Below, piece by piece: positions 1 to 30,527 of a stretch of DNA of 64,000 nt. The translations under genes were made by a program, and so were the position numbers. The notes below the pieces were generated by a model, which worked only from the letters and a program-made list of their open reading frames with translations, was not told where the DNA came from and searched no databases. This DNA comes from Psammoneis japonica (Eukaryota), in assembly GCA_008632985.1 (NCBI GenBank), contig QPGO01000060.1:372001-436000 (forward strand). Reading direction: 5' to 3'. Positions within the stretch are counted from its first letter, which is position 1. Each line of letters begins with the position of its first letter.

Positions 1-462
1 TGACAGATTTCGAAATTCTTTTGAAAAAAAAAAAACAGCTGGTGGCGTGACATGACTGAGGGCGGTTCGATCCAATTGCGTCCGAAAATCGTCCAAAAAC
101 GGATGTAATTTAGACAGTCGAATGGATCAATCGCACGTTTTGTACGCCTTGAAAGAAAGAAACCCAGCCAGAATTGCTTATTATCGTTTATCATAGGGTG
201 AATTTTACAAATTCATCATTAGACTGTATTCTTGTTCGATTATTCTTTGCAAAAATCGGCCATAAATCCAAAACTCCTTGGGATGGATCGATAAATCGAT
301 GATCGAGATCGATGAGCAATCAAAATATTGCAAAGATACAGCTGTGCATGTCGGTGTGCCGTGTGCTGTGCATACCAACTTTAGTAACTCCCTGGCTCGT
401 TGTTGCGTTCTTGTTGTCGGCCCTCTAGCATAGAAACCATTTGCGCGAAACAAGTCTGAAAA

Positions 463-2721
463 ATGCTCTCTCGAAATCAAGAAAAGAGACAAAGGTGTCT
501 GGAGGCGATCGGACGATTGCAACATGGTGGAATCGAACATACTGCTATTGAGAACGCGGACTGGGATGGGCTGAGACATGACTTGTGCCGAGCATTCCCG
601 AGCGAGAGCGAGAAGGAGGAAGACGAAGAAGCTTCGAGTGGAGAGGATTCGTCTTTGAGTGAGGCGAGGCCACGAAACAAGAATAAGAGAAAAGTTGTTG
701 AAGTTATTTCACTTCTCTCTGGGTCTGATGATGATGACGACGACGGCCCAGCCGAAACTGAACCACAGCAGACTAACAAAAGACGATCTATTGACAGCGA
801 TTCGTCGTCAACAGCTTCGGAAAACACAGATCGGACCGATCAGTCGTTTGACAACAACAGGCAGGATGAAAACGAGCCCAACACAGACGACTTGAGCGAC
901 AAAGATTCCAGTGACGGCGATTCCAGTGACGGCGATTCGAGTGACGATTCGTCAACCGACGATAATGCGTCGAGGTATGATGAAGTGATTCCGGGTGACA
1001 ACCCTCGTGCTTCAGAGAGCCACACAGACAGCACCTCTTCACTTCACGGAGAACAAGGAGCTACACCTCATGATGTGCAGGACGATCAAGTTGATGTGCA
1101 GGACGATCATGTTGATTTGCCCTTTCCCTCAATCGACGACAGTTCGGTTCGAGTAGGCGATTCTGGGGCCAGTGATCATGAAACAAACGAAGATGGACTA
1201 GAAGAAGATGAATACAACATTGAAGGTCTTGATCTAGAGGAGGATGAGGAAGAAGAAATTGTAAAACAGTTTCGAAAGAGAGTGAGACCAGTGGGCGAGG
1301 CACAAGCTGAGCCAAGTGTGTTGGAACGGACTGGGGAGATTCTGACCGAGCCCGATGAGGACTTAGAAGACTTTGAAGAGATTGAAAGCCACGGCTATTC
1401 TTTTCGAGTTGGGAAAACATATCACTTTCAAGCTCGAGACGGAGGAACGTATCTCTACGGCATACAAAGACTATATCGTCGGTCCGACGGAAGGTCGTTC
1501 GCTGAATGTTTTCAAGTCCTGCGTCTTGAGGAAACGTTTCTGGGCATACAGTCGACCCAGTATCCTTACGCACGTTTTGCGGAAAAGGACAGGTTTCCGC
1601 TCGATAAGAGGTTTGGCCAGGAAGCCGAAGATGTGGATGGCATTCCGACTTTGACGTACGAAGACTATCGAGGAAAAGGCCTGCACGTCTGTTACTATCC
1701 ACCAAAGCCGGGGCAACCGCTGAAAATCCATCCGTTCGAGAAACCCACATTGGTCGATCTGTTTGCCGGTGCTGGTGGAATGCACAATGGATTTCATGCC
1801 GCTGGCTTTGGAACTGCCATTGCCGTTGAGAAGAATCCGTTTGCTGCGTGGACCTTGTCCGCTGCAACCAAGAATATTTTCACAGGCGACGTGGCGGCGT
1901 TTCTGGAGATGTGCCATAATCCGTCCTTCCGCAGGCAGCTGGGTTGGGTATGGCATCTTCATCTGTCTCCTCCCTGCCAAGGCTTCTCTGCTGCAAATCG
2001 AAATGGTGGTAGAAATGACCACGCCAACAATGAACTCTCTCTCAAGTTTGTAGATTCTGTCAAGTTACTCAAGCCCTACACTGCGTCTTATGAGATGGTC
2101 ACTGGGATTCTCCGAGAGGCCCATCGAAGCTACCTCTCACGGATTATACTTGGCCTTATCGAAGAGGGATATCAAGTCCGATGTACCATTCTCAATGCTT
2201 GCGACTATGGGGATCCACAAAATCGCCGCCGACTCATCATATTTGCAGCTCGTCCTGGCATTGAACTTCCCAGACGACCTCGAGCGACCCACGGAGATCC
2301 ACCGTTGTTACCTCCAATGACAGTGGAGGATGCTATCGGTGACTTGCCTTGTCCTCAGTCACCAAGCACTTGCGAGATGAAACATAAACACAAGACTCTG
2401 TACAATACATGGTATCCTACAACGAAAGCAGTTCCTGGTGACCCCGACACTGTCGTCCTAGAACCCCACAAGCCGGCTTCGACTGTCCGCGCCAGCTCTC
2501 GTCCACCTCTTCATTATTCACCAATCGAAAAAGAAGAAGGAGAAGTGAAATATCGATGCATAAGCTTGAGAGAGGCTGCTCTACTACAGTCGTTCCCTCG
2601 TCACTACAAGTTCTGGGGTCCACCAAAGCAACAGCGCATGCAAGTTGGGAATGCAGTCCCCGTGAGACTGGCGACAGCCATTGCGCGGAGTGTCCGCGAC
2701 GTGTTTGATTCAGCGACATAA
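463..2721 (+). CDS. C5 cytosine DNA methyltransferase, RID/Masc1 (DNMT4)-like, with a long acidic disordered N-terminus
   Basis: Motif I DLFAGAGG, motif IV HLSPPCQGFS (HLSPPCQ is typical of RID/Masc1), motif VI YEMV, motif VIII QNRRR, motif IX REAALLQSFP, motif X QVGNAVPV. The N-terminus is D/E/S-rich, with a 15-bp tandem repeat at 904-945. A possible degenerate BAH-like segment precedes the catalytic domain. Confidence 0.9.
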   Translation: MLSRNQEKRQRCLEAIGRLQHGGIEHTAIENADWDGLRHDLCRAFPSESEKEEDEEASSGEDSSLSEARPRNKNKRKVVEVISLLSGSDDDDDDGPAETEPQQTNKRRSIDSDSSSTASENTDRTDQSFDNNRQDENEPNTDDLSDKDSSDGDSSDGDSSDDSSTDDNASRYDEVIPGDNPRASESHTDSTSSLHGEQGATPHDVQDDQVDVQDDHVDLPFPSIDDSSVRVGDSGASDHETNEDGLEEDEYNIEGLDLEEDEEEEIVKQFRKRVRPVGEAQAEPSVLERTGEILTEPDEDLEDFEEIESHGYSFRVGKTYHFQARDGGTYLYGIQRLYRRSDGRSFAECFQVLRLEETFLGIQSTQYPYARFAEKDRFPLDKRFGQEAEDVDGIPTLTYEDYRGKGLHVCYYPPKPGQPLKIHPFEKPTLVDLFAGAGGMHNGFHAAGFGTAIAVEKNPFAAWTLSAATKNIFTGDVAAFLEMCHNPSFRRQLGWVWHLHLSPPCQGFSAANRNGGRNDHANNELSLKFVDSVKLLKPYTASYEMVTGILREAHRSYLSRIILGLIEEGYQVRCTILNACDYGDPQNRRRLIIFAARPGIELPRRPRATHGDPPLLPPMTVEDAIGDLPCPQSPSTCEMKHKHKTLYNTWYPTTKAVPGDPDTVVLEPHKPASTVRASSRPPLHYSPIEKEEGEVKYRCISLREAALLQSFPRHYKFWGPPKQQRMQVGNAVPVRLATAIARSVRDVFDSAT

Positions 2722-2924
2722 GCATGTCTATGATCCACTGAATCATTTCATTGATGCTGTTGTTCATATTTTTATGTAGCATTACGTACTGCTACTGCAT
2801 TCATACTCTTTGAAGATATATTGTTCTGAAATTTGAAAGGGCTGGAACAATTATAATTCACGATGAGAAATAAATGACGCTGCGTCTATGCTTTATTGCG
2901 TTGTCGCTCAGCAAGTTGACTTTC

Positions 2925-3935: not shown

Positions 3936-5649
3936 TTTGCTTTTGTTACGTTGATTTGAAAGTGTGTCCGACTGAGAAAAAGCGCGGATCTTTTCTAGTG
4001 TTATTATGAGAAAGGATGCTGATGAATGCTTTGTGAGACGTGAAGTGTTTGTGATGCGGGACAGAAAAAGCGAGGCTGCGAGTTAGTCGGATAAGTCGTT
4101 TCTATGCGCGACTCAGAATTGCGAATTTCAAAATTGCCCCACCACTGAATCGCGGGACTCACATGCAAGTGAAGAGGCGATGGCGCATCTTTTCTTGTTT
4201 TGCACAGCACCAGCTTCCAGCTTTGATTTCGAAGCTTATCGTTGTGACACTTCAGCACTTCACCTTCAGCCAGTTTCTCCTATCCAATGCAACTAAGATG
4301 AAGAATGTCTTTCAACCCATTTTTGTCATGAAAACATCATCTCTTCTCTCTTTGGCGTCGGCCCGGCAGCAACTCTTCAGGTTTGCCCATCATTCAAGGA
4401 CAATTCCAGCATGAGTTGCCTTCTCCATTGGCATTGTGAACCACTGCAATCAGATCAAAATAACTCAGAGGAGCTTGCAAAAGAAAAGTTGGGCAATTCT
4501 CACATTGTGCGACGACTTTCAGTGCACGGCCCCCATGGATGCTTCTAAAACAGCAGAGGCGCTGTGGGGGGCACAGGAGTTGGAGGCAAACAGGCCAAAG
4601 AATGTGCTCCCCAAGGCAGCTGCTCCTTTTGCCTCAGTTGCAATGCTTTACCTGAGTTTTGTGGCACCAAACAAGATTTGCCTGTTCACTCAGCTCTGCG
4701 CACAGAATGGCAAAAGCTTCTTGCTGGAATGCTCGCCAGACTGTGGATCAGAGTGGGCAGTCATCAAGGAGTGCAAGACTAGAAGAGCTGGCAAGAATTG
4801 GCTGCTCCACTTTCATGTTGCAAACCCAAGGGCCACAACCCCATCCTTTGTGCCAAGTCATCACACAGGTTGCACCTCTCATGTGCGACACAACACATGC
4901 AGATGACAGGACATTCATTGACACGATTCTGGCACAGGGTCTTCAGTCTCCTTGTGCCCCTTCTTCAAAGCCTCTTTCACATCTTTTAAACAAGTTGAGC
5001 TTTGGTGACACCAGAAATGAGATGACTGGCTTTGCAGAAGCAGGCTTTGCCGAGGGAACGGATGTCTCTCTTCTCACTGGTCAAATTTCTGCAGCCAGCG
5101 GCAAATTTGGGAACAAATGTCACACCAGGCAGCTCTTCAGTTGTGTCATGATGTCAAGCACAAATGGTCTGTCCTTTTTCCAAGCCAATGCAAACAAATT
5201 GAGCTGGACTCACCGTCTTTCCAACAGAAGCTGCTGTCAAAAAAAGCAAAGAACAGCCAACCTTTCTGCACTTTCCATGAAAAAAATTGTGAGCCATTCT
5301 GCCGACACCCCAAATCATTGAAGAAAAAATCAATTGTGGCACCTCAATCATGACATCCCATGACATGCAAATGGCAGATGTCCACGCCATCAGAGTTCAT
5401 TTGGTCCCCACAAAATGGCACAACAGATCAAGCCGATTCATCTCAAATTAAATTCCAACATGGAAGCAAAAAAAGCCCAAATTTGACCACCAACTCTCAC
5501 TGGCTTGGGAGTCAAACACATGGACAACTCATGCCAGGTGTTGAACCTTTGTTGTTGGGACTTTGCCAAAACAAATGATGGCACATGTCCCATCATCATT
5601 GACCAGTCACACACTTCATCAAAACATCCACAAGATTCATCTCACCATC

Positions 5650-8600
5650 CTCTCTGCCAGCTCTTGTGATTCCAGCTGCCTGCCACAGCTTCTTGAGCCA
5701 CACGACAATTGACAGCATTGTGTTTCTTGTGTGGAACAAATTCAGGTGTGCTCACATTCTTGACCACACTGCTGTTGTGTCACAAGGTGCATTTGCTGGA
5801 CCTTCAACAGGATTGCCAAACATTTGCAGCTTGCAACTTGAAGCAACAATGAAATCCTTTGCAACCCTTGAAGCAACCAGTTCACTCCCAAAAGTTGCTG
5901 ACTCAACCACATTCTGCCATTTGTTGAGCCAGACAAATGGGTGCATTCTGCACAAAATCAACATCTGCACTGTGCACCCTGCATGATTGGTTTCAACAAA
6001 ACAAGAGACATGCAAACTGGGACACACCTGGGTTTTGGGATCTTGGCTGGCAACTCTTCTTCAACACACCGTGAAAGTTTGTCCAATCTATGTTGACATT
6101 GAAAGCTGACTCATCAGTCTTGCTTGGTGACTTGGGGTCATGTCTGATTCTTCCCAGATCTTGACAGTGAGACAGGCATGAGACTTCATGAAAAGCATCA
6201 ATTCTCCCAAAACTCCAATTTAGTGGAGATGCAATGACGTTCCCTCTGGCCCCAGCTTTGCTGTTTCATGCAACTCTGGTTTGCATCTGGAGGGTGAGGG
6301 ATTCTTCACATTGCTGGCCTTGCATTTTCCATCCTCAAGCAACAGTCCCTTGATTGTTTTGATTGCTTCCTCAATGCATGACTTGGGCGAGCTTTCCCAA
6401 ATGAGTCATCTGTCTTCCACCCAGATCTTCTCAATGTCCATGCATGCCCAAATGATGTTCAGGTTCCCCTTTGCTTCCTGGTTTCACAGCAACACTGGCA
6501 TTTGTCTGATCAACAATTGACATTTCCCCTGATGCAAGACTTTCAAAATGTCATCAACACAAACCAAAAGCACATCACAGCATTCATGCCCATCTTTGTA
6601 AGTTGCTGCACAATTCCAAACATCTGGATCTGCTGCTGCAGATTCAAAACCTGTGTCACAAACCACAGAAGTGAGGTGTGTTTGCCACAAACAACCAGGG
6701 CTTTTGTTTGCTTTCCAATTCTCCACATTTGCTGCCACCTTCCAACCACCTTTTCTCCACACATGTTGTGCTCAAGCATGCACTCTGCAGATCAATCTCC
6801 ATGATGTTGCATCATTGAGAGCAACCAACAATGAGCCAATTTGTGTGCCGTCTCTTGATGCAACACTTGAGTGCATGATGCCAGGGCTTTTGTTTGCTTT
6901 CTGATTCTCCACATTTGCTGCCACCTTCCAACCACATTTTCTCCACACATGTTGTGCTCAAACATGCATTCTGCAGATCAATCTCCATGATGTTGACACC
7001 ATTGAGAGCAGCCAACAATGAGCCAATTTGTGTGCCATCTCTTGACACAACACTTGAGTGCATGATGCCTGTTGGTGCTTTTGTTGCATGCCCACCACCA
7101 GCAACAAATCTTGCCTTTTGCATGAAATGTGTCTTGACATCAAAGGTCAAATGACAATCAATCTCCTGATGGCCAATCATCTTGAGGTTCTTGCCTTCCC
7201 TTGTCTGTTGCAGAGTGCAACCTCCTTCCTCATTCCTCATTCCAAGCAACCTTGACCTCAGACATCTTTTTGTTTGTTGCCTTCTGCCAACAATCTGTCC
7301 CCATTTCCTGTCAAACTGCAAGGCTTTGCCAGTGTTTGTTGGCTGTTGAGTGCCAAACTCATGCATTGTTTGCCAATGCTTGGTGCCTTTGTTGCTTTAG
7401 ATGCAACATGGTTTCTTTTCTGCAGCACTTGTGGTGCCCACCAGGAAAATGCCAGTTCATCAACAATGCGGCAATTTGCCACAGCATGTTCTGTTACCTT
7501 GGTCAGGTTTTTGATGCTTTTAAATCTTGTTTCAATTTGATCCATTCTGTTGGTCCATCCTTCCACAAAACCATCAGTGTTTCCAACATTGAGCTGTCAT
7601 TTTCAGTTGTTCTCACCCACTCTTGGTCCAAATCTTGGCCTGAGATGTTGACATCACGAGTCACCTCACTTGTGATCATTTGTCTCCTGCAACATTGAAT
7701 GACATGTGATGCCCACCTGAGTCCACTTGCTCAAAAATGTTCTCTGCAACAATGTTGGCAGTGTGCCTGTCAGTTGTTCCATCTGCGTGGGTGACTTCAT
7801 GTTCTCTGGTGTCAAAGATGGGGTTGTCAGGATCACATCTGACAGGTCTCGTCCATCTGCCCCCCATGAGCACTTGGTGACTGCACCCTTCCATTCTGCA
7901 CCAGTTGTTTCAACTTCAAATGGCATTTTCATTCCAAGATGAGTGTTTGTTGCTTCATCATCATTGTCTTCTGGTCACTCATCAATTGACTCAATGATCA
8001 GCTGGAGTCACACCAGATTTGTGTGCTGCTGCAGGGTTCTTGTCAAGAGTCACATCATCCAACACAAAGGCAAACTGATTTTCTTTCTGATTGATTTGGA
8101 AATTCTTGTCATCAAATCCAGCTTCCAATTTCTGATCAAACTCCTTGATCTTCTGTTTGATGTCCTTGCTCAGAGAATCATCTCCACCAGTCACATGCTC
8201 AGCTGACATTTTGGAAACCAGCTCCCCATTCTCAGCAATCAAACAAAAGCACATGTCCAATCCAACCTTGTGAGGAGATGTGCCAAGCCATCCAGCTGAT
8301 CTTCCAGGATCATCTGCAGCATTTGGTTTGTCAGGTTGATCCCACCACCAAACAAGATTGCAAAACTCAAAATCAAGACATTCTTGCCAATCTCAGGAGT
8401 TTGTTCAGTGACTTGTTCACAACCAGCTCATTTGTCCTTGCCTCAAGCCATGCAACTCATCAGCTCACTTTTGCACACAAGACCAAAATGCCAGAGACAT
8501 TTTGGCACTTTCTTCTGGGTCATTTGCAACCACAACCTTTTGGCCAAATTTCCAATCTCCCTCTCAGCTGCACAACTCTAATTCTTTCTGCCTTGTTCTG

Positions 8601-9790
8601 CAACTTGCAACTGGATCTTCATCCACCTGTGTGTTTGACAAACTTGGCATCACTTCCAGCAAACTCTCCAGCTCCATCAGCAGTCAAGCCCTCAGGTGCT
8701 CCCACATCATTGGCCAAATTGATCAATGAGGACTGACCTGCCTCAGAGCAAGCACTCATCAGTTGCTTTTACAAACTTGCTCTGCACAACACAAACATTT
8801 GTGCACACATTCCCAACAATCAACTTGACACTTGAAAGCAAAGCATTCATGACCTTTCAATCTTGGTTGATGCAAGAAGTCCAAATGATCAACTTGCGCA
8901 TGTCTTGACAGTGGTTGGGTGGCTGTCTTTTTGCACCATGCTGAGTTGTTGCATTCAATGCATCTTTTGCCATTTTGAGCCTCACGTTCCACTTCCTTGC
9001 TGGCTCCTTTGCCACGACCTTGGAATGTCTGTCACTTGTTCTCAGTTCTTTCATCTTTTGCTCATCAACACTTTGCAACAAGTGAGTGTGATGTTGACAG
9101 ATGACATCATGCAACCACAAAATGACTGCAAACAACAGACAGGCAACACATGCTTTGGACCACATTTGACTTCACCCCATTGCACAGCATTTGAATTGCT
9201 CCTCTGTTGCCTCAATTTTGCAATCTGAGTCTTCTTCATGCTTCATGTTGATGATCACATCATTCTCATTGCATTTTGTTCCATGGCTCAACTCCTGATT
9301 CCAAGATCAAGATTTTGTCAGGTCCCATTTGACACTGGTCAAAAGAACAACTGGCAAAATTTCTTCTTCCCACTTTGTTGGAATGTGAGACTCAAAGCCA
9401 ACAGCAAGTTAGTCACTGGGGTTTGAAAAGGGATGAAAGCTTTGTCCACTTCTTGAATTCCAAAAGAAAAGTCATGACAACCAAATGGATTGTCTGAGAC
9501 CAGGACCTTGGCTGCATGCATGAATTTGATTCAGATTGAGAAGAGCATGTCTGAGTTAACTTGCAGGCCATGAAATTTGATCTCCAGCCAAGGAACATTC
9601 TTGACTTAAACTGGGGTCAGTCCAAACAGCCCAACATCTGGTGACAGGCATTTCCTTGACTGAATCACAAGTGTCCAAAATGGAGATGCCTCACAAACTT
9701 GATTTGTGAACTCCATGGGAGCTCAACTGGTGCTGGTGCAACAAGTGTTGGGCATGAGCATCGCACTCATTTGTGGCACAACAATGTCCA
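5650..9790 (-). mobile_element. Degenerate Ty1/Copia (CoDi-like) LTR retrotransposon pol: protease-integrase-RT-RNase H
   Basis: Protease-like ECDAHAxTCC near 9740-9770; integrase-region remnants near 8300-9050; RT HQEIDCHLTFDVK..KARFVAGG..HSSVVSRD..DLQNACL (6900-7180) and LLVCVDDIL (YVDD); RNase H QNVVESATFGSELVASR..KLQMFG.PVEGPAN..CD (5752-6027). Multiple frameshifts; LTRs not identified. Confidence 0.9.
6695..7069. repeat. Tandem duplication of about 186 bp inside the Copia RT
   Basis: CCAGGGCTTTTGTTTGCTTT starts at 6695 and again at 6881. The copies align through CATGATGCC, and their differences include CA/TG doublets. Confidence 0.95.
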
Positions 9791-10739
9791 GGCTTTGTTG
9801 CACATGAATTCATTGCTGAAGAAACAGCCAACAGCAAGAATGGTGCACCGTGTCACAACACTGACTTGACTTGATGGAAATTGTTGGGCAGCATTGCACT
9901 GGCAAAAGCAATGGCAGAATGCACAGCAAAGGACACAACCAATGCCAATGCGTTGTTGCTGTTGCAGGCACCCCAAGCTGTCAAAAGGAATCCAGCTCTC
10001 CATTGCAACCACCTTTGTCACCTTGTCCATGTCCAGGATCAGCTTCAGGCATTGTTTTGGATTCCACAGACTTTGTCTCTGAAGACCTGATGTCACATGT
10101 GTTGCACCCACATCCACTGTCATGCCCTCCATGGCGACCATTGTGACCACCTCCAGCTTGCTCCTCTGCCACAGGGGTGTTCATGTGCTTTTGTCACATG
10201 GGCTCCACTGCTTTTGAGCTGCAACGACAACATTCATTGGGTGAAAATGAATGTGTTGGATTGGAAATGTCCACTCCATTGATGATGGTGTTTGACACAA
10301 ATTAGATCCAACGCCATCATGACCTTTGCTTCCTCCATGGCCACATTGACCAGGGCCCTGTCCACCTCAACTGCAGCCTGGTCCATTTCCAGGTCCTCCT
10401 TGAGACAACTTGGACATTTTGCAAAATGCCATGCTTTCAATTGTGCACCACCATGGGTTCCAGTGTGCACAGGAAGCACGCATTGGAGGTTCACCAAAGA
10501 AACCCCAGCATTGCTGGAGGAAGAAGGGTGAAGCTGCTGGCTGTGCTGGCAAAAATGTTGCAGTTCTCAAGTGACAATGCAGACAACAAAGAGAATGCAC
10601 AAAAAACAAATGTGCAAAAAACTTTGGCAGGAAGCCTGCACTGCCAACTCAGAGCTCTGTTGCTGAGGTTTCTATGGAGTTGGATGCACGCTGCCCATGC
10701 AGTTCATTGAGAAGCATCCTGATGAGGATGTCTCTTGTT

Positions 10740-12000
10740 CTGCTTGGTCAAGAGCATGCAACAACAAGGTGGTTAAAACCTGTGTATCCCACAAGCATTT
10801 TTCTTCACATGCAGGTGCATTTCAGCATGTGCCAAGCTGCAAGGGCAACAATCCTGGTGGAAAAACAGAGCATTGGCAAGAGGGTCAGTTTCATTGGAGC
10901 AAGAAGGTGTCATGCATTTGAGCCTCTGGGATGCTTCAATGAAGAGAGACTTCAGAAGATCATGATTGCGGCCTTGGGTGACAAGCCGGTGGCAGAACCA
11001 TTTTACAATTGCTGTGCAATCACTGAGATTTGGGTTTCTGTGAATCCAGCATTGGTGAAGACCACCATGAATGATGCTGTTCAGCACTCCTGGAGGATGA
11101 GCTGAGGTTGGAGGAATTTACAAGTGGAGACTCCTGTCTTTCTGGCAGGTCTTGGATTCTGTCTGACTTGTTGCTCTGATTTGCAGGTGAAAGTCTAAAA
11201 AGACTGCTTTGTTTTGCAGCAAGGATGCCACCCATTGAAGGGAGATGAAATCATTGAGTTCCTTTTTGAAGTTTTTCCAAGCAGGGCCTTCTCTGCCAAG
11301 CTGTTTTCTGAAGATGTCATCAACAAACATCCGCAGCATGGGAGATTGAGAGTGCATCTTGCAAGAATGGCTTGTTGTTTGTGGAGAGCCACACACATGG
11401 TGGCATGCACGCAGGTGGTGCTTGTGCTCATTGCTGCACTCTTCAGCTGCAGCCAAAAGATGTTGTAAAACTGCATGACATTTTGTTCAATTGCAATTTC
11501 CAGCAAGGTGAGAAAGAAATCCACAGGAAATTTTGCTGGTGCTTCATCGTGGCATTCAAGAAACCACCTGTGGAATGCTTCAAGCCCATGTTCAGTGTCA
11601 GCATTGGTGTGCACACCAAAGCATCCACTGTGAAAAGTTTTGGGTGGGGTGGAAGGGGTCCTGTGGAGTTGGACTGGACACATGGCAAAGCTCTTTCATT
11701 TTTGAGTCCAGCCAACATGAAGCTGTGTTGTTGTGGCTGCCTGCATTGCCAACAATCAGGTGGGTCTTCCATGGTGATTGGTGGACTTCAGGAGCAACAC
11801 AGAATTGTGGCACTTGGTGGGGCAGCTTGAAGCTGTGTTTGAATCAGGTGACTTTAGATGGGGAGAGTTTTCTTCTGAGGATGCCTTTCATGCACTTCAG
11901 AGAAGAGGTGTTGTCTCTCTCTCATGCACTCAGCATTCTGCTCCATGGCCAATGGTCAATTGCTGGCAGTTGTTGGTGATGAGGAGGTGGTCTTGATGTG
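10740..12000 (-). mobile_element. Degenerate Penelope-like retroelement reverse transcriptase (relic may extend to about 12800)
   Basis: LFTVDA..VHTNADTEHG (consensus LFTADA.SMYTNI), NVMQF...FWLQLKSAAMSTS (QxxGTAMG), LRMFVDDIF (RYIDDIF), VFLD, and a C-terminal GMLNSIIHG..HRLVTQG helix. Confidence 0.8.
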
Positions 12001-15000
12001 TGCATCACCTTGCTCCACAATGGCCAGACCAAGGTTCTTGTTGGTCACACAGATTGCAAATCTTCAGTCCTTTTGCACTGGACTGTGGAGGGCTTGACAT
12101 TGTCTTGGGGAGAGATTGAAGTGAGATTTTCTCTTGGAGGCTTGTCAGCTGCCACAGTCTGCTGCATTCACAAAGTCCATCATGCAAAGTTCAATGGACC
12201 CAGTTTCTGCCAGTGGAGGAGGGGGTTGAAGCTGGATGGGACACAGATGTTGGGATCACAGTCTTTGTTGAGGTCCAAGACTGAGTTGTCGATGAAGTGT
12301 TTCAGGTGCATGGACAGCTGCAATCACTGTGTGCCTCATCTGTCACAAGGGAAAGATTTTGCTGACTTGGTGCAGAACTCATGGCCAAGACTGGGACAGT
12401 GCATCTAATCAATGACATCAAGACACAACAGAACAAGAGCACAGTTTCATTGCAAGATGTTGTTGGCCTGAAAACAAAGCCCTTCTGCTCCACCAATCAG
12501 AACTCTTCTTTTGCTGGGTCTCCATCAGCCTGAACTTTTGGCTTGACCCCTGCCTTGTTGGGCAGCTGCTTGCCTTGTTGCTCTGCTGCTGAAGCAGCTT
12601 TTGTGCACAAGCATTCATGGCAAACTCTCTCAATTCCAGTGGCAAACTTTCATCCAGATGCATTGAAAAGCATGATCCCCTGGTGAGTTGAGAAAAATGC
12701 AAAAGCCAACGATGAACAAAATCAGCAAGACGAGTGGGCATCCAATGATTTCCATCCAGGTTTTTGAAAAGTGACATGCAAGGACAACAGGCCAGCAAGC
12801 TCACTTGCAGCCAATTGCATGTGGCACTGCATTGTCATGGAGAAATGAATTCAACAGAAGGTCCGGTGCTGTTTCATGCACTGCAGCAGGTTTTGCTCCA
12901 ACCCAACCAACTGACAAAGGAAAGAGCTCTGCTTGAATGCAAAATTTGCAGCAAGGTGATGAGATGAGTTCATCATGCACAGCAACAAGTGTGTGACTTG
13001 TTCCTCAATTGTGGAAGTGTGCATGTTGTGTGCAGCTGTCATGGAGCTGAGTGCACTGATGGCATGCTTTTGACAACAGAGAAAAGAACAAATGACAACA
13101 CAATGAAAGGCTTTTTTCATTGAATGCTGCTTCACAAAATGGCCAGCAGCAAAAAAAGGAAACTTTGAAAGAGAGGAGAGGGCTCCATGATGGGGGCTGG
13201 TTGATTTCATTGTTCCACATGGGAAACATCTGATTGAATGGTGGGACCCTCTTTGCAAAGAGCTGTCATGAAATGGGCAATGCAAAGAGTCAATCACCCA
13301 ACAATGATGGTGTTGGTGAAGCCTTGTCTGATCATTCTTTTTGGCCATGCACCTGGCACAGACCCAGATGACAAAAGAGCCTTCACAGAGAATGCACCAC
13401 TTGGGCTTGTCATCAAATGCAATCTTGGTTTCAAGAGCAGGGAATGGAGCAAAGTCACCCCAATTGGCCTTTCTCCTGTTGCCAGTTTGTGCTTTGATTC
13501 AATGAGATGTTGCTTCTTTGCTGCAAGTGACATCCAATTGTTTGACATGGCATGTGAACCATTCACACACTGTTGGTGTCCATCAACAAATTTCACAGAA
13601 TGGTTGGCAAAATCTGATCTGTGTCACTTGCCATTCCCAGAGCACAAGGCCTGTTTGGCCATTTGCAAGTTGCTGTGTGGCAAGCACAAGGCACCCACCT
13701 TCACAAAGGCTTTCACCAAGCCTGGGTGATTTCCAATTGTGGTTTCATCTGGATCCAAGCAGGTGCCCCACTCACCTTCATTGATCAGTTCCACACCCAC
13801 CAGAGCTGGTGGCCAGACAGCACAATGCTTTGGGATTGGGAGCCAGCGGCATTTGGCTCCCTGACAACACTGCAGCCCATGGCGAAGCACCGCTTCTCAC
13901 CTTGCAACATGGTCATGTCAAGCCTGTCATGCTGACTGAACTGGCTCCTGTCTGGCAACACCACATCCCCAGCTCCACTTGGTGCACACTCATTGTGTGG
14001 TCAAACCCACATGACACTGCTGCCAACTCTGACTTGGAATCCATGGGTGGCTTCCCTCACCACAAGCATGCCAGATGCAGTCATCTTGTGAACACGTGCA
14101 TTTTAAAGTGCCACAAGTTGCTTTCAATGGGAGCACACTGAAGTTGTTCTTGTTCCTCACATTTGAAAATGTTTGCACATGTCAGTTGGCAATTGTTGTT
14201 CATTGGCACTTGCTGGATGACAAGCACTTCATGATCACACACCAACCACATTGAGCAATGTTCTTTTCACTGCCAAATGAAAAGGTCTGTGTTTGTGCAC
14301 TTTGTCAGTTGCTGGATTTTGTTTCATCAATTGAGTGTCCTTCTTCAATGTGGTCAACCACCAAAGTGTGATGACAATCTTTGCTGGGCAATGTTGTGCA
14401 AGTTCATGCAGATTCAAGCAAGCCTGTGCAAGTTTGTGCACGCAAGGTTGGATGCAAGATTGCACCCAGGTTGGTTTTTTTGCTGCCAGCAAACATTCTT
14501 GAGGCATGTGTTGCACAACATGATGACTTCATTTCATCAGTGGAAACAACCAACGTTCTTGAGTTGCTCTGCTTTCATTCTTCTTAGATGTCATTTTGTG
14601 TCCAAATCACTGAGTCTGAAAAACTCCGTGGAAGTTCATGCAAGCCAGCGCAAGCCTGTGCAAGCCTTCCTTCCTGTGAACATCAGTTTGGAAATCAGAC
14701 AAAAAGCACTGCACTTTGCAACATCACCAAAATTAGACAATGACTCCACAGCATGTGAGTTGAAGTAAAATCCAGTGACAAAATGAAGCACACATCTGAT
14801 CATGACCTTTCATTTGTTTGTGGCTTGTTGACAGTGACACAGCACACAATGTAATTTCTCATTGTGTGACATTCTTTGTCATTTGGGCAATGATTTGTCT
14901 GATGTGTGCACTCACATCTCCGCACAGCATGGTGAGTCAACCTGCATGTCAAGCACATGTGAATGGAGTGTTGCACAAGAACACATTTTTTGGGCCACCA

Positions 15001-15099
15001 ATCTGGCATGCCCAGAATGCAGTGCTCTGCTGTCCATGGACACACCACCAAAAAGACAACCAGACAACATCACAGCAAACCACCACAAACAAACCAACT

Positions 15100-16420
15100 G
15101 CCACCATCCCGCATGCATGATTGCCATGCAGCACCAGCAATGCTGCTGTTGCCTTGTCATCAAAGACCACCTGCCTGGCCCCACTGATGTCATGTTGGAT
15201 GATGCCTCATGCCTTTTCAGCCCCAACACTCACAAGCTCCTCTGTCACTTTGACAAAACTTGTTCACAGAACAAACCATGGCAATTGCTGCTTTCTGCTG
15301 TCACCTCTGCACTGCTCAACAATGTGTCAAAGCTGGAGCGGCATCTTCACAATCCAGTGCCACTGAGGGACAATGACAGACATGGGTTGAGTTCTGCAAA
15401 GCCCGCTCCCTGGATCCTGCCCTTCAAGAGTTTGATGATCCTTTTTCCATCCTCCAAGTCTTTGCCAGGCACTGCTGACTTGGGTCTCTTGCCCCCAGCA
15501 ATCACTGGGTCCAACCTCACACAGTGGAAGATGCCCTGCAAAGTGTCAGCCAAGTGTTTGCCGGCGGCAGTGGTGGCCCCAGACCCATGCAAGACCATCC
15601 AGGGTGACACAGACTTCCCACATTTGCTGCCAACTGGCCTGCTGCAAAAACAAATGCCCCAACCAAACTGGATGAAACCCATGCCAGGGCCTGTTTTGCA
15701 TGCACCATGGCTGCGGCAGTCCTTGCCATTGTGTCATTGAGGGCATGTGCATGGCTGACATGATTGCTCTGGCCTTTTTCTTCCTGCTCTGCCCCAGCAA
15801 ACACACCCTGCCCCATCTGACACTGCTCCTTTTCATCCAGGCAATTTCAACAGTTCACCAAGCTTGTTCACCACAACCTGCAGACTGCTGCCAAAGCTGA
15901 CCTGTGGGCACCCACCTTCACCACCCTTGAATTCACTGTGCAGAAGAGTGGAGTCCATGACAGAGTCATTGGCCTCTCTCAGTGGGGACCCACAGTTCTG
16001 CCCAGAGCTGATGCCAGTGTGATGTGTGCTTCACTTGTGCCAGCATGGTGCTGATCCCACCACTCCACTGGCATCATGCCATGAAGGCGTTGCCTTCAAG
16101 CTGGCAAAACCCACCAACCCTGCTTGCACCTTGTGCTCAGTGACTTGACTCCACCTGCAGTGCTTTGCCCAAGGATGTCTCCACTTGCTCCCTCCATGCC
16201 TGTGGTGCCACAGCCCTCTTTTGTGTGCAAGAAGTTGACCCCAACATCACTTGCCACAATGGACATTGGAATTCTGACAAAAATGCTGTGCCATCTCCAT
16301 GTCCAAGCCAAAGCTGTCATGCAAAATCTTTCTTCCCAAATGCCCTCCAATGTGACCTGCTCCCTGATTCCCAACCACAAAGTGCCCCTCTGTGCGGAGC
16401 ACACATCCCATGTTGCACTC
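15100..16420 (+). mobile_element. Degenerate tyrosine-recombinase retrotransposon (Ngaro/DIRS-like): end of RNase H plus YR domain
   Basis: DHLPGPTDVMLDDASCLF (consensus YIPGP.N.MADDASRL), ADMIALAFFFLLCPSKHT (AFFFLLRPxEYT), SLHACGATALFC (SLRAGGATAL), GHWNSD (GRW.SD) and MLCHLHVQA (MLRYLHVQA, catalytic Tyr read as His). Confidence 0.8.
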
Positions 16421-16470
16421 CCACCACCCACAATGTTGACAGCATGTCTTCTGCTCTCCACTGAAGTGTC

Positions 16471-16925
16471 CAGGAACTCAGCTTTGCAGCCAGTTTTGTG
16501 ACAAATGGGTCTGGAGCTCAAGCTCCACAAATGGACCTCTGCCACCAGACTAGATCAGTTTGATGCTGGAGTCAGCTGTGCTGTTTGAAGTGGCAACAGC
16601 TGCTGCAGAACAGGGAAGATGATGCAACAAGGGCCATTGACCAGCTTGAGTCTGTCCAACCAGGGACAGATGCCCCATGCCTGTCACTTGCCAGACCAGC
16701 CAATCACTCATGTTGGCAACTGATCGGTCTCATTCTTCATTGTTGTTGCAACAACAAGGAGTCAGGTGGCTTTAAAGGACCCTTTCACCCACCCCCCCAG
16801 GAACTGGCTCTTTGCAGCCAGTTTCTTGGCAAATGGGTCAGGAGCTTGAGCTCTGTAAATGGACCTCTGCCACCAGACTGGTTCAACACTGGAGCCAGCT
16901 GCACAGTTTGAAGTGGCAACTGCCG
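16471..16925. repeat. Diverged direct repeat of about 130 bp (16471-16605 and 16798-16925)
   Basis: Both copies share CTTTGCAGCCAGTTT, AAATGGACCTCTGCCACCAGACT and GTTTGAAGTGGCAAC. Several differences are CA versus TG. Confidence 0.85.
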
Positions 16926-19154
16926 CCACTTGCATTTCAGGATTGACTGGCTGCCTGAGTTGTCATCATGACACATGGCTGCAAATGATGGAAAGTCATG
17001 ACTGCTTGTTTCCTTTGCCACACATGGTGGGGAACAATGACAGTGAGACAGGCAAAAGCAACATCTTTTCACAATCTCAGCACAGCTTGACAAAACAAAG
17101 AACAAAATGCTGCTGTTCTGTGATGTTGCCACATGGCCTGCCGGCAGTGCATTTTGCAGTCAGGAGCTTGCACTCACAGGAGGTTGTTTTCTTTTGTCAA
17201 CCTGGTCTCATTCACTGCTTTTTTATCTGGTGCCCCTCTTCTTTTCTTGGTGACAGCCCCTTTTTCAGGGACTGAGGCTTCATGTTTCCCGGCTGAGCTT
17301 GCAGGCTGATGTGAGTCTGAGTCTTGTGCCATCATGCTTTCTTCCTCACATCTGTTTGAAGCAGAAAGTGTGGTTTGCTTGCATGCTTTCCAGGCACATC
17401 CTCATTGTCTGAGATGGTGCCAACTCCTGTCACCCCCTTCCTTCCAAAAGAGCCACAACCAGCTCAGAATGAGATGGTGGTGGCTCCACCTCTCACATGA
17501 CAATCTCATTGTGAAAATCTGTGCAACCCACAAAACATGTCAAGGCTTTGAGGACTGGGGGTCATTGCAGAAATGTGTTGCACCATGCATCTTGTCTTGG
17601 AGCCAGGTCAATTTTGACCCCATGGAAGGGTGCTTTTCATTGCTGCATCCTGCTGCATTCATGACATCATGAAGCAAGGAATTGCTTGAAACAAGATGAT
17701 GCCTCATCTGGTGACTCATCTCAGGTGTTCATGACAATCTTGGCAATCTTCTTGTTCTTGAGTGCACCACAGATTTTTCATCACTTTGCTGCTCCATTTG
17801 GAGCTTCTTCAATCATTTTTTCATGTTTCCCTTGTTGCCACAACTTCTGTTCCTTCCATGTGGCAACTCCATGACAAGCTCGGTTGTCCTCTTTGTCTTT
17901 TGCCTCTGGTGCAAACTGTGCTCATCGGCTGTGTTGGAGATGTGCACTCTCCCAGCTGTCAAAAACATGTGAAACACTGTCACATTGTGCAAAGGACTGC
18001 CATGGCTTCTTTCATTTGTTTTCAGTTGCTGCAACAATGTGGGCGCAACAACAGAGACAACAGTGGCAGCTGCCAAGCCTCGGAAGTCACTCGAGGCTTT
18101 GCAATCTGAGCTGCAAGTTGTTGCATGTCAAGCAAATTGAAGTTAAAAGGTGCTGGATTAATTTTTGAAGGCACCAAGGGCAGTGCATCCCCCCCAAGGG
18201 GGCAAGCCCCCACACATGGCATTGACAGTGGAGCTGTGAAGCCTGCGGCGGGTGCTGGGCCTGCTTGAGCTGCCCAAAGGCGCAGCAATCAATCTGCTGA
18301 CCTGGCACACTGCCCAAAGCTTGCTGTGGCCACACATCAGCACCCTTGTTTTTTGTGCAACCCAAGCCAAGTGCATGAAGAGTTTGTTGAAAGAATCTGT
18401 GAACATTTGTGCAAGAATCAGAGGTCAAGCACAAGGGAGCAAAGTTGGGAGGAAGGGCTTGAGTGTCAGCCATGGCAGGTCTGTGCTGGACATCAGCTGG
18501 GCAGGCTTTTGGCAAGCAAGGCTGAGCTCAGAAGATCTGTCATCTGCACACTCTCAAACCAGATGATGTGTTTTCATGCATGCCAGCTGTGCCACACCTG
18601 TGTTGGTCATTCCCAAAGTGCGTGCTTTGAGATTTTTGTGTGATGACCTCAAGCCCAGCTGAAGCTGGACAGAGTGCACTGCTTTGTTTTCCTCAACAAA
18701 TGAAGTCCTTGGTGTCACGAATCCCATGGACAAGCTAAAGCACAAAGGTTTTCCGTTGATTGCTGTGGTGCCAAATGTTGTGTGTTGGACAGTCGCAGTG
18801 TCGGTCATTGTGCATGCACCGCAAGCAAGCATGAGCATGGTAGCGCATGCACTCGCTCATGATGGTTGTCAGTCTGCAGTCACGCTTCCACGCGATGCCT
18901 CTTATCTTCATCGACTAATTTCTATTCCAAAGAACATAGAAAATATAAAAAAGCAACTCAATTCAAGGTCAAAATCGAGCAATATTCGGCGATTGCAGTG
19001 TTCTCTTTCCTGAGGCCTGTATGTGGCTGTCACAATGCCAGAGACAACGAGAGGACAATGGCGGTAAGAAAAACGTGATTGTTTATCACTGAAAGCTTGT
19101 GAATATGCCTAAGTTAAGTGACATATCTCATGTTAAGTCATTTTTGTTGCAAAG

Positions 19155-24034: not shown

Positions 24035-24784
24035 ATATTATACAACATCGTCAATGGATAGTCATTCAAAATTCAAAATTTCGGTTTGTCCGTCATCGCG
24101 ATAAACCAAGCAAGGAGACGAGGAACGAGGAACAACAAGAAGATGTGCGTGTGCGTGTCCTGACGACTCACACTCGTTGCGCGGCCTGCCAGACTTCCAT
24201 TGTCGTCTCATCTTCAGGTCCATCACACCCACGGTGCTTTCCTGGGACAGGGCATGTCTTCTTGAAATGCCACCCTCCATGCACCAAGGAAGGGTGACGC
24301 TTTCGATTTTCCCACCCTCTTCCACGGTGTCCATTGATGAGAATGGGTGAGAGCACCTTGGCCCCGTGGTTCTCTTGGCAAACCACATGCTTCTCTTTCA
24401 GTCCCTTTGCATCAGCAAACAGCTTCAATTCTTCATGAAAAGCAATCCACAGGTGTGGCTCTCATTGTTTGCAGTTTTGAGGCAAATGGGCACTTCAGTT
24501 TTCACCTTCTCAACTGGCAGGGAGTCGGAGCGGCTGTGGACATGTTTGCTGCTGCAGCAATCATGACTTGATGTTTTGCAAGGATGTGTGTTGAGTCTCT
24601 CACAAAGTGTCAAGGAAAAAATCCATGGAGAGCACTTGGCAATTGCGGTTCTCTGCATTTTTGTTTGTTTCACATTTGTCGTTGAACGCTCTTGTTGAGA
24701 TTTGTGTGGGGCCTGCAAATTGACACAGTGTGTGTGGCAGTGCCACAAAAATGTTGTTTGTTTGTTGCTCTGCATGGAGATGAA

Positions 24785-24810
24785 AACAACAACAACAACA
24801 ACAACAACAA
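24785..24810. repeat. (AAC)8 microsatellite
   Basis: AACAACAACAACAACAACAACAACAA read directly from the sequence. Confidence 0.9.
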
Positions 24811-25279
24811 GAATGACAACTGTGCAGCAGCAATGAAAAAATGAGAACTTCAGCACTTCTTTTTCAGCGTGAACATTTTTGCTTGCAGAAATTGTCAAAA
24901 TGCCCCACTGACTGCATTGCAGCTTGATCATTTCAATCATTTTAAAATGCAAACCAGTGCTCAGTGCTGTGAACATCAAATGAGTGCAATGATGCAAGCA
25001 CAGTTCATTGTCATGATCCGTGGCAATGCCACAAGCAAAAAGCAGGAAATGCATTTGAAAACCCACTGGCATGTGAAGAGGCAGAAGCTCTGCCAGATGG
25101 AAGGAAAAAGACAGAATTGTTGAAGCTGTTGCCCGGGGGGCCAGTTGTGACAAGCCAAGCAAATCAAGATCTGACAACTTTGATGCATGGTGGTTTCATC
25201 AGGCAAAGGAGAAGACAACTGCAGACACACAATGGATGAGGAAAATTTGCCCAACAGCACCTTGAATCATGCAGCATTG

Positions 25280-26240
25280 TGCAACTTGCCATTGTGCTTG
25301 ACATCAAGCGCAGCTTCTGCATCTTCCACCACAACAAAGCCAGAACACACACCTGCATTGGCTGCATTGGTTCACATTCTGACCCTCCTGAAAGCACAGC
25401 CAGAGGCCAATCTTTGATGCAGCCAATGTGGTGCACCTGTGAGATTGACCACAAAGACCATTTTGGCATTACATCCAAGATGCAAATGTGCTGCTCTTCC
25501 AAGTCCTGTCAAAAGCAAATGTTCATCAGCTCAGCCATCCATGAGACAGAACAAGGAAATTCCTCAAGGAGTGCAAGAGACAGACATGTGCTCAACCATC
25601 AACTTGCTTTTTCTTTTCTGGCAATGGGATCAGGAGGCCAAGATGCTTCAAAACTGCTTGGACTGCTGGACCTGCCAAATGCAAAGAGCATGGGAAAGGA
25701 CACTTTCTCTCATGTCAAGAGAAAGATTGGTCCAATGATGTGGAGCATTGGTGATTCATTGCCGGATCATGCCCTTCAAAATGAGGTTTGGGCCACACTG
25801 GAGGAAATGCCACAGCAAGGTGTCACTTTTGATGCATGGAAAACAATGCCTCCTGTGAGAATGGCACCCAACTTGGTGTGTGCCCTGAAATCACAGCATC
25901 CACTGACATGGGCTGGCAAGCTTGTCTCATGGCCAATGCTGGCATGCCTCTCACCACTGCCTTTCTTGGCACCAAGCTTCACAAGCGAATTGTCAGGATG
26001 GTCTTGTGAAAGCAATGCAGCATGTGCGTGCAACACACCAACCACACAGCTGTGCTGATGCGTGAGTGCCCCTTGAACTGCAAAGGTCATTCAAAGTCAA
26101 TGGAGGCACACAGCACTGTTCAGTTGTGCAAGGAGACATGTCATGAGAAAAAGAAAGTGTGCCTTGGGTTGGTTGTTGCAGATTGCAACTCCACGATGCG
26201 GGCTCAGCTCAAGTGCCGGGCTCAAAAAACCTGGTGATGT
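25280..26240 (+). mobile_element. Degenerate DDE transposase (Mutator-like-domain / Kolobok-type)
   Basis: HVLNHQLAFSFLAMGSGGQDASKLLGLLDLP, ASTDMGWQ (about 25895-25920), CPLNCKGHSKSMEA and LVVADCNSTMRAQLK occur across frameshifts. Termini were not identified. Confidence 0.7.
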
Positions 26241-27629: not shown

Positions 27630-27804
27630 TGCAAGATCTGGCTTGAGATGACTTGAAAAAAGTTGTGCAAGAACCGAGGAGAGACCCCATCATTGCTGAT
27701 GTGGGGCAAACCCAACGGTTCCCGGCACATCTAATGTGTCAGTCAACACACACACATCAGAGAGGGCACACTCGGTCACAAAGTGCATGTGCCCATCTCA
27801 TTCA
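27630..27804 (-). repeat. 3' LTR of the Gypsy element
   Basis: Ungapped 175-bp alignment to 33421-33595; preceded on the minus strand by the polypurine tract. Confidence 0.95.
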
Positions 27805-30137: not shown

Positions 30138-30527
30138 GACGGGTTCCAGTCCTAGGTGGGACTCCGTGTGACATTGGGCCCGTAGAATTCTACGTGCGAG
30201 CTCCGCAGTGCTAGAATTTAATTAATGGATGTGTTTGTCTTCAACATCAAATGAACTGCCAAGTTTGTGGTACAATTATGCCTCTTGCCACTCGACGTTT
30301 CTGCAAATGCGCCTGCCCTACGCGATTCTTAAGACATTATAGAATCGCGCTGTAACAAAAAATGTCAAAAGTTGTTGGACGGATCGCTCAATAAGTGTAC
30401 CGTAAAATGACACAAAATATCGAAAAAATCACGTAGAAATCTACGTGCGCGACATACGACGTGATTCAAAAAACTATCGATGTCACAGTTCAGTAGTACG
30501 AGGTCCCACCTAGACCTGGAACGCGTC
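30138..30527. mobile_element. 390-bp MITE inserted in the Gypsy RT; 30-bp imperfect TIRs, 4-bp TSD AGCC
   Basis: Left end GACGGGTTCCAGTCCTAGGTGGGACTCCGT; reverse complement of right end GACGCGTTCCAGGTCTAGGTGGGACCTCGT. AGCC lies at 30134-30137 and 30528-30531. Excision restores the RT frame GKFQCCRMA-VGLKPAPDIAQ. Confidence 0.93.

Follow-up and report, generated by a model that had tools for sequence, protein, structure and literature searches.

Conversion of TpA to CpA or TpG has been described in Bigelowiella natans (Mettrop et al., bioRxiv 10.64898/2026.01.13.699255; our statements on this organism follow the part of the preprint that was available), where it affects DNA of giant viruses and virophages that has become integrated. 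In the mutation-accumulation lines of that study, which were sequenced with Illumina, two integrated viral regions received 231 of the 302 point mutations of the nuclear genome, and 230 of these 231 were A to G or T to C changes, all 230 of them at TpA. The process is presented as arising de novo and episodically at about 1000 times background, with a rate of about 6e-7 per site per generation, and the larger giant-virus region was mutated in 11 of the 15 lines. The TpA-poor coding sequences of B. natans were enriched for DDE and reverse-transcriptase domains, and the authors also propose adenine deamination. Here we report on a window of 64,000 nucleotides (the whole stretch that was analysed, positions 372,001 to 436,000 of the forward strand of contig QPGO01000060.1, Psammoneis japonica assembly GCA_008632985.1), in which a main tract and four further tracts, among them those that hold a Gypsy long terminal repeat (LTR) retrotransposon, have lost nearly all of their TpA steps, and a variable share of their CpG steps, beside genes of ordinary composition.

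A preliminary description of this DNA, made from the sequence before any search, had proposed a repeat-targeted hypermutation of TpA and knew of no account of such a process; the B. natans work on integrated viral DNA is such an account. A full-text literature search returned no TpA to CpA/TpG hypermutation besides that preprint. We read the phenomenon in the window as being of the same kind as the one in B. natans, which is known from this one preprint without a mechanism, and as stronger and coupled to CpG decay.

Loss of TpA and CpG in the window

The main tract (4104-18735) holds 41 TA steps against about 530 expected and 87 CG steps against about 827. Over 4200-18850, the interval to which the preliminary description had referred, TA was counted 43 times and CG 85 times; going by the normal DNA of the window, about 530 TA (Poisson P about 1e-166) and about 828 CG would be expected. 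In a 1-kb sliding profile the observed/expected ratios between about 4.5 and 18 kb were 0.00-0.10 for TA, 0.03-0.13 for CG and 1.8-2.1 for CA+TG, whereas the gene-bearing DNA of the window gave about 0.5, 1.0 and 1.2, respectively. The longest runs without a single TA measure 1699 and 1698 bp.

What was lost from TA and CG was regained in CA and TG. Between 4500 and 18000 the share of TA among all dinucleotides was 0.0026 (0.0362 in normal DNA) and that of CG was 0.0050 (0.0565), and CA+TG stood at 0.2336 (0.1455); the sum of the four steps was 0.241, against 0.238 in normal DNA. The remaining 12 dinucleotides were near normal and the GC content was 0.471 compared with 0.482. This mass balance is what would be expected from transitions of TA and CG into CA/TG, and from nothing else.

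The limits of the tracts are sharp. TA is dense up to position 4103 and dense anew from 18736, about 400 bp before an open reading frame (ORF) encoding a JmjC protein, which starts at 19137; on the left the stop-to-stop frame of eIF2-alpha, on the minus strand, ends at 4082. Edges in TA density were placed at 4103/4237, 18159/18736, 24102, 36698 and 38014, with intact ORFs adjoining. The four further tracts with the same TA loss and sharp edges lie at 24103-30152, 30614-33985, 36699-38013 and 61831-64000, the last of which contains two isolated N letters (63149 and 63583). The desert of TA beside normal genes that the preliminary description had pointed out is therefore borne out by the TA counts, by the 1-kb profile and by the edges; its claim of TA loss is real, and the loss of CG alongside and the mass balance were aspects that it had not stressed.

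The triplets TAA and TAG are nearly gone from the TA-free DNA, with 15 and 8 occurrences in 5000-18100 compared with 106 and 118 in a normal stretch of equal length (38100-51200). TGA is commoner there (352 against 244). The near absence of TAA and TAG from TA-free DNA thus gives rise to numerous long spurious ORFs on either strand, by which gene callers may be misled.

Direction and timing of the change

One test of the timing uses the Gypsy element (Table 1). The two LTRs of a retrotransposon are identical at integration. Those of this element now differ at 26 of 176 aligned sites, 25 of the differences being transitions, and 24 of the 26 lie in pyrimidine-purine steps (TA, CG, CA or TG), in agreement with the TpA preference that had been claimed. 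Recoded as purine and pyrimidine, the two copies are 99.5% identical over 184 bp, and only two differences were found outside pyrimidine-purine steps. As the LTRs differ at precisely these steps, the change came after integration. The 24 differences make up 15 step events: nine swaps between CA and TG, four between CG and CA/TG, and two between TA and CA/TG. A swap of CA for TG is two changes if made directly, but only one in each copy if it started from an ancestral TA or CG. Two CG steps persist in both LTRs and four in one of them only, so that few of the swaps should come from CG and most of them probably come from TA.

Further evidence for the direction of the change comes from a duplicated fragment of the gene NCA2 at the edge of the tract that ends near 38.0 kb. 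Four of the five TA steps of the gene copy read CA (two) or TG (two) in this 114-bp fragment, and no CG-step difference was scored. The copy has been mutated and the original gene has not; of the two, the copy is a short fragment and the original is subject to selection. The change thus runs from TpA to CpA and TpG. Two short pieces of NCA2 are in fact duplicated on both sides of the 36.7-38.0 kb tract (21748-21793 at 36200-36245, and 21939-22069 at 37908-38036); mutations are seen in the one at the tract edge and are absent from the other, at a distance of about 450 bp. This arrangement could reflect the capture of a gene fragment by an element or an insertion into a partial duplicate of the gene.

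The reverse transcriptase (RT) of the Gypsy element is split by an insertion of about 360 bp, resembling a miniature inverted-repeat transposable element (MITE), which breaks the RVT_1 profile between positions 97 and 121. This insertion has kept 24 TA steps in 30153-30511, plus many CG, in the midst of an erased element. The unmutated nested sequence means that the TA-poor state belongs to the history of the element and not to the chromosomal region alone. Either the insertion came after the episode of TA loss or it is too short to be targeted. The inverted similarity of its ends reaches about 25 nt into the flanks (30128-30167 against 30498-30537).

Loss of tyrosine codons and strand symmetry

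The three Gypsy ORFs were aligned to 150 homologue representatives, with eight Tyr-poor homologues excluded, and a column was taken as Tyr-majority when Tyr occurred in at least 40% of at least five aligned homologues. At the 17 Tyr-majority columns the Gypsy pol reads His six times, Cys six times, Trp twice, and Arg, Gln and Phe once each; Tyr is not found at any of them. Other majority residues were kept in 47-100% of their columns (Phe 83%, Trp 85%), and of 410 other columns 12 have His or Cys (Fisher P = 2e-13). Judging from these residues the element is otherwise well preserved, and it is specifically the TAY codons that became CAY or TGY. The loss of catalytic Tyr to His or Cys, which the preliminary description had read from conserved motifs, agrees with the 12 of 17 columns that show one of these two residues. 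In the integrase ORF, for example, PGCG and RHPRP stand at places where relatives have Tyr. The RNase H ORF had 17211 relatives at E<=0.001 in a search of representatives.

In 4500-18000 the two products are nearly balanced, with CA:TG at 1620:1534, and a runs test gave no indication of clustering (z = 1.04). In none of the tracts did the same test detect strand-coordinated clustering of either product (z from -1.76 to +1.32), and a model in which a processive activity works along a single strand was dropped for this reason. The equality of CA and TG, their lack of clustering and the equality of His and Cys show that the change took place on DNA, on both strands and independently at neighbouring sites.

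Rate, order of the losses and sequence context

TA loss was about 87-97% in all six sampled blocks. The loss of CG varied: the blocks of the Gypsy element and at 36.8 kb had lost 30-41%, and those of the main tract, of 24.3-26.0 kb and of 61.9-64.0 kb had lost 83-91%. The two losses are for that reason separable, and TA was lost faster than CG. The Gypsy element has lost about 87% of its TA, compared with two of 176 LTR sites changed outside pyrimidine-purine steps. As a rough estimate from this one LTR pair, mutation at TA sites may have outpaced the background by a factor in the order of 100. The erasure of TA would accordingly be early and fast, and the decay of CpG slow and cumulative.

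The steps that survive carry information on the preferred context. Among the 74 surviving TA of all tracts, with strands pooled, the 5' base was A in 6% (28% in normal DNA) and T in 45% (22% in normal DNA). No surviving TA stands in the context ATAT, ATAC or CTAC, whereas TTAA, CTAA, TTAG and TTAC occur in excess. This suggests an extended preference, with the fullest loss at ATA/TAT and the best survival at TTA/TAA. Surviving CG had no marked flanking bias, and a process of the kind of repeat-induced point mutation (RIP) acting at TCG is not indicated.

CpG loss and a DNA methyltransferase gene

An intact-looking gene for a cytosine-5 DNA methyltransferase (DNMT) is placed 1.4 kb from the main tract. 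The N-terminal part of its frame, about 430 aa, is acidic and of low complexity, and the C-terminal catalytic domain carries FAGAGG, PCQ, QNRRR and GNAVP, which we take to be methyltransferase motifs I, IV, VIII and X. Its best solved relative is the catalytic domain of DNMT1 (E 9e-27). The closest database relatives are 57% identical; most matches are of bacterial type, and the only named eukaryotic match is from a diatom. The presence of this gene fits the CpG half of the pattern, and its action on these tracts is putative.

Identity of the affected elements

Mobile identity is firm for the Gypsy element only. The preliminary description had listed Copia, Penelope-like, tyrosine-recombinase (YR) retroelement, DDE transposase and Gypsy relics within 4200-18850. 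The RNase H, integrase and RT of Gypsy were recognised by Pfam, at the coordinates given in Table 1, and no transposon protein was detected within 4200-18850 itself. Stop-to-stop ORFs of at least 60 aa in 4100-18900, 148 in number, gave no credible Pfam match at E<=0.05; the six matches listed were to unrelated families, with E between 0.004 and 0.045. When Pfam was run on 31 longer ORFs across all TA-poor tracts the Gypsy integrase alone matched. A DDE transposase is represented by a weak Mutator-like match (PF20700, E 2.3e-4, 20.7 bits against a cut-off of 26.5) at 26010-26234 on the plus strand, thus below the Pfam cut-off and outside that interval. Penelope-like and YR elements were not found.

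As for the five motifs that had been cited from that interval, CVDD (6550-6561, minus) and MLCHLH (16283-16300, plus) do lie within it, and HVDD (30047-30058), RHPRP (28508-28522) and PGCG (28733-28744) are part of the Gypsy element outside it. The Copia reading of the ORF that contains CVDD is weak, as it would follow from one motif; a homologue search with this ORF (6487-6771, minus) found none, which is in turn weak evidence. Among the read-set contigs that matched positions 1-20000, 41 of 63 were less than 95% alike and 47 of 63 aligned only in part. These diverged and partial matches suggest that copies of the main tract exist elsewhere in the genome. A comparison of the window with itself, in plain and in purine/pyrimidine coding, gave few internal repeats.

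Read sets, relatives and metagenomes

Contigs built from exact 31-mers of a public read set (X1, depth about 60) span 1-19571 in eight main pieces, apart from small gaps, and TA is not restored in them. This speaks against an artefact, for a library whose type is not on record. The X1 contigs differ from the window by 66 bases, 40 of which were shown, plus scattered single-base or small indels. Among the 40 shown, 34 lie in the tract, 15 of them between CG and CA/TG and three between TA and CA/TG, with one more of the latter type at 4237 on the left slope. Set against the small number of TA and CG that remain, these differences point to the two steps still being hypermutable. Another run from this sample (X2, labelled 'DNA?') covers the three gene regions 303-2851, 2983-4017 and 19228-20000 at depths of 20, 8 and 40, respectively, and includes almost nothing of the TA-free tract; its contigs resemble those of transcripts.

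The preliminary description had named natively TA-free elements as an outcome that would speak against it. Among 50 metagenome loci that encode relatives of a Tyr-free pol homologue, 48 have ordinary TA (observed/expected 0.39-0.95), so that the family is not TA-free by nature. The two others, L024 and L025, have the same signature of TA loss. In L025, positions 5550-11330 contain a Gypsy relative with a TA fraction of 0.011 against 0.050 in the flanks, CA+TG of 0.213 against 0.149 and a four-step sum of 0.248 against 0.240; the tract has sharp borders, normal flanks on both sides and a partial loss of CG. No LTR pair was found in L025. L024 (501-4533) likewise contains a relative of Gypsy in which TA has been lost, CG has been lost in part and CA/TG has been gained. 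The pol frames of these two loci have three Tyr, against 33-34 in intact relatives. One of the two contigs has a SPAdes-style name, presumably the mark of a short-read assembly.

Eight of the 150 Gypsy RNase H representatives (P0155, P0161, P0174, P0187, P0231, P0262, P0264 and P0270) are themselves nearly Tyr-free, with 0-2 Tyr (in one case none in 699 aa) and with His and Cys raised. Their presence in a public protein library implies that hypermutated copies are being predicted as proteins.

Possible explanations

The explanation that we consider probable is a host process that would act on chromosomal DNA once a mobile element has integrated, and that would turn TpA into CpA or TpG, at a rate perhaps two orders of magnitude over background; as the step is palindromic, the A:T to G:C transition may lie on either strand. 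The process would be limited to transposon DNA, its edges lying no more than about 100-250 bp from the adjacent genes, and by removing all Tyr codons and all TAA and TAG triplets it would disable the proteins of the element. A second and slower process, most simply the deamination of methylated CpG, would turn CG into TG or CA in the same tracts, and both processes would end at CA/TG. A change of T:A to C:G specifically at TpA and only in mobile DNA, as put forward in the preliminary description, has the support of the mass balance, the LTR pair, the NCA2 fragment, the Tyr columns, the relatives and the read-set contigs. From these observations we infer a dedicated defence that would involve an enzyme.

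The chemistry that we tentatively prefer, as the leading one among several candidates, is that a nucleic-acid deaminase, brought to silenced chromatin, would turn adenine into hypoxanthine at TpA. The natural substrate of TadA and ADAT2 is the A that follows the near-invariant U33 of tRNA, a context with which deamination at TpA would fit. As TpA is palindromic, sequence alone does not separate the deamination of adenine from an oxidation of thymine: A to G on one strand is indistinguishable from T to C on the other, and the symmetry of CA and TG (1620:1534) would be produced by either. In dinoflagellate DNA 5-hydroxymethyluracil (5hmU) is found preferentially at TpA and TpC, which counts for a thymine chemistry in which a dioxygenase of the TET/JBP type oxidises the T of TpA to 5-hydroxymethyl- or 5-formyluracil (fU), a base that mispairs with G and gives T to C. 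Both of the steps that were lost would carry a 5-methylpyrimidine if CpG is methylated, and a relaxed 5-methylpyrimidine enzyme could in principle also destabilise 5-methyl-CpG and so link the two losses. In the available part of one study, moreover, 5-formyluracil gives mainly A:T to G:C changes via fU:G mispairs (PMC7051996). We nevertheless hold this chemistry to be rather unlikely, as no such enzyme or base was observed here, a near-total conversion by way of a rare mispair needs very many rounds of replication or a very dense modification, and the flanking preference of surviving TA, which has no marked counterpart in surviving CG, argues for two processes.

It is improbable, in our view, that there is no dedicated system and that TpA just mutates more readily than any other A:T site in silent methylated chromatin, through a bias of repair or polymerase or through GC-biased gene conversion, and that old repeats drift to CA/TG by themselves. 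The oldest-looking tracts are indeed the most CG-depleted, and normal DNA already stands at about 0.5 for TA and 1.2 for CA+TG; against such a drift, the Gypsy element is young (two of 176 LTR sites changed outside the steps, residues kept in 47-100% of columns) and has yet lost about 87% of its TA, the nested 360-bp insertion keeps its 24 TA in the same chromatin, and the process of B. natans, as far as the available text goes, was switched on in 11 of 15 lines at about 6e-7 per site per generation. An ADAR-like A-to-I activity that edits retroelement RNA ahead of its reverse transcription, and thereby delivers mutated copies, is contradicted by the divergence of the LTRs at these sites after integration. 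Editing of the sense strand also predicts only Tyr to Cys, where His and Cys were seen at 6:6 and CA and TG at 1:1, and the NCA2 fragment and the weak DNA-transposon relic are affected as well. Although ADAR favours U before the edited A, as the discussion of the B. natans preprint states (10.64898/2026.01.13.699255), and A-to-G traces are known in animal retroelements, this origin is very improbable and would be revived only if the LTR pair belonged to two separate elements. An artefact, in which the base-caller or the assembler misreads a modified base of the repeats and TA is what the DNA really contains, deserves equally little credence. The scattered substitutions and single-base indels relative to the read-set contigs would suit a long-read assembly; against this, the exact-31-mer contigs carry the same TA-free sequence, the two metagenome contigs (one of them SPAdes-style named) share the signature, the accessible Illumina results on B. 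natans show the mutation arising, and a misreading would not yield an exact mass balance plus a real loss of CG. The least credible possibility is that the elements are natively TA-free, through selection against TA, for example to escape a TA-specific nuclease or TA-targeting transposons, or through a TA-poor donor. It could draw on the nearly Tyr-free representatives (8 of 150), but Tyr has been replaced by His and Cys and not by the conservative Phe, the LTRs diverged in situ, 48 of 50 relatives have normal TA, and unrelated element types share the TA-poor state.

Several points weigh against a targeted post-integration process as we propose it. The polarity of the change was obtained from small numbers, namely five TA sites, 17 Tyr columns and one LTR pair, and the transposon identity of the main 14.6-kb tract is presumed and not demonstrated. 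The percentages of TA loss and the rate assume that the blocks began at the normal 3.6% of dinucleotides, and surviving TA may in part be new mutations, by which the context preference given above would be skewed. There is little documentation of current activity, with three of the 34 tract differences shown being between TA and CA/TG, and X1, besides its unrecorded library type, is possibly from the same sample as the assembly and so not fully independent. No enzyme candidate for the TpA change was found within the 64-kb window, and the amphioxus ADAT2, which deaminates A and C in DNA, prefers GAA and TCG and not TpA, in the part of that report available (PMC10354150).

Other features of the window

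On the minus strand, 44489-48172 is occupied by an ORF of 1227 aa with no Pfam match and with internal tandem repeats (45005-45460, and several copies in 46223-46727). A protein atlas search with an ORF of 986 aa of the window gave no usable match. The coordinates of the features discussed in this work are collected in Table 1.

Table 1. Features of the 64,000-nucleotide window, with positions counted from its first letter (TSD, target-site duplication).
Feature	Position	Strand	Basis and remarks
Cytosine-5 DNA methyltransferase gene	460..2721	+	753-aa stop-to-stop frame; PF00145, E 1.2e-45
Main TA- and CG-free tract	4104..18735		Presumed old nested transposon debris; dinucleotide counts
ORF with Copia-RT-like 'LLVCVDDIL'	6487..6771	-	Motif-level resemblance only; no Pfam match
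TA-poor tract left of Gypsy	24103..27624		TA positions; contains weak Mutator-like DDE relic
Gypsy LTR retrotransposon	27630-33595	-	175-bp LTRs from TG to CA, 5-bp target duplication, Pfam
3' LTR of Gypsy	27630..27804	-	Preceded by TSD copy CATGA (27625-27629)
Gypsy integrase ORF	28148..28945	-	Pfam Integrase_H2C2 and rve; no Tyr
Gypsy RNase H ORF	28785..29741	-	318 aa, no Tyr; PF17917, E 3.5e-21
Gypsy RT, C-terminal half	29519..30151	-	RVT_1 profile positions 121-204; HVDD for YVDD
MITE-like unmutated insertion, about 360 bp	30153..30512		Inverted ends GGTGGGAC.../...GTCCCACC, TA on both flanks
Gypsy RT, N-terminal half	30513..31208	-	RVT_1 profile positions 56-97, E 0.0018
5' LTR of Gypsy	33421..33595	-	Followed by TSD copy CACGA (33596-33600)
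TA-free tract, element type unassigned	36699..38013		2 TA against 48 expected; about 55% of CG kept
NCA2 gene fragment duplicate	37926..38036	+	Edge of the 36.7-38.0 kb tract; original at 21956-22069
TA- and CG-poor tract running off the window end	61831..64000		8 TA against 79 expected; 24 CG against 123

Significance

Relative to the B. natans preprint, what is new in this window is the near-complete erasure, the clear targeting of a retrotransposon that was demonstrably changed once integrated, the parallel loss of CpG, the bias in flanking bases, the unmutated nested insertion and the footprints in metagenomes. It is possible, although we put it forward as a tentative generalisation that may well not hold, that the erasure of TpA is a widespread and enzyme-driven genome defence of eukaryotes and not a trait peculiar to one alga. 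In the unrelated and intron-poor lineage of the window every class of mobile element would then be hit soon after integration, the erasure would have run its full course before CpG decay has advanced, ATA/TAT would be preferred, short later insertions would be spared, and the genomes behind L024 and L025 would be carriers. If this were true, a comparison of the gene sets of carriers and non-carriers could reveal a natural, chromatin-guided editor of adenine (or thymine) in double-stranded DNA. With the window and the two metagenome footprints a single observation becomes a comparative problem, that of the gene families common to carriers. LTR pairs and nested insertions are clean natural substrates for dating and context analysis, and the pattern points to a possible natural DNA adenine editor with dinucleotide specificity. 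For annotation the consequences are practical: spurious long ORFs arise in TA-free DNA, and hypermutated elements escape profile searches.

Comparison with known systems

Fungal RIP resembles the process in the window in being a transition hypermutation at the DNA level that follows integration, cripples mobile elements and has sharp limits beside genes. It differs in that RIP changes C to T mostly at CpA, thereby making TpA and AT-rich DNA, whereas here TpA is destroyed and the GC content hardly moves (0.471 against 0.482). In some lineages RIP acts at CpG or TCG; its trigger is the duplication of a sequence, both copies of which become mutated. The decay of methylated CpG in silenced transposons is alike in the half of the pattern that leads from CG to TG/CA, with CG at 0.03-0.13 of expectation in the main tract, in the differences between CG and CA/TG seen between the LTRs (four) and between X1 and the window (15 of the 34 shown), and in the presence of a DNMT gene. 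However, such decay cannot remove TpA and so explains half of the pattern.

The editing of animal retroelements by APOBEC and ADAR enzymes shares with our case the use of hypermutation of mobile or viral nucleic acid as a defence, driven there by a deaminase and here, by inference, likewise. APOBEC changes C to T on one strand during reverse transcription, whereas both strands of integrated DNA are affected here; ADAR changes A to G on the sense strand of RNA, whereas here both strands are affected equally and sequence that is not retroelement is included. Both kinds of editing fail the strand and timing tests. To our knowledge, tRNA adenosine deaminases have no link to chromatin targeting. 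Their fold can deaminate A and C in DNA, as the amphioxus ADAT2 and the engineered TadA editors indicate, although the amphioxus enzyme prefers GAA and TCG and a single-stranded substrate in the part of the report that was available (PMC10354150).

The nearest relative remains the hypermutation of B. natans, taken from the available part of its preprint. In both organisms the change is A:T to G:C only, at TpA and on both strands, with CpA and TpG as the two products; it is confined to foreign or mobile DNA beside normal genes, which in the window is firm for the Gypsy element only, and it leaves a long-term depletion of TpA with an enrichment of CpA and TpG. The organism of the window is other than B. 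natans: its genes are long, intron-free ORFs of up to 1227 aa, and the best database relatives of its eIF2-alpha are 46% identical, those with a name being early-diverging fungi at 36-44%. Normal TpA makes up 3.6% of dinucleotides here compared with 6.0% in B. natans. CpG is lost in parallel here, and the accessible text of the preprint never mentions CpG. The clearest targets are LTR retrotransposons in the window and viral inserts in B. natans, and the depletion is near total here in every mobile tract (TA observed/expected about 0.03), whereas the giant-virus insert of B. natans still has 3.3% TpA.

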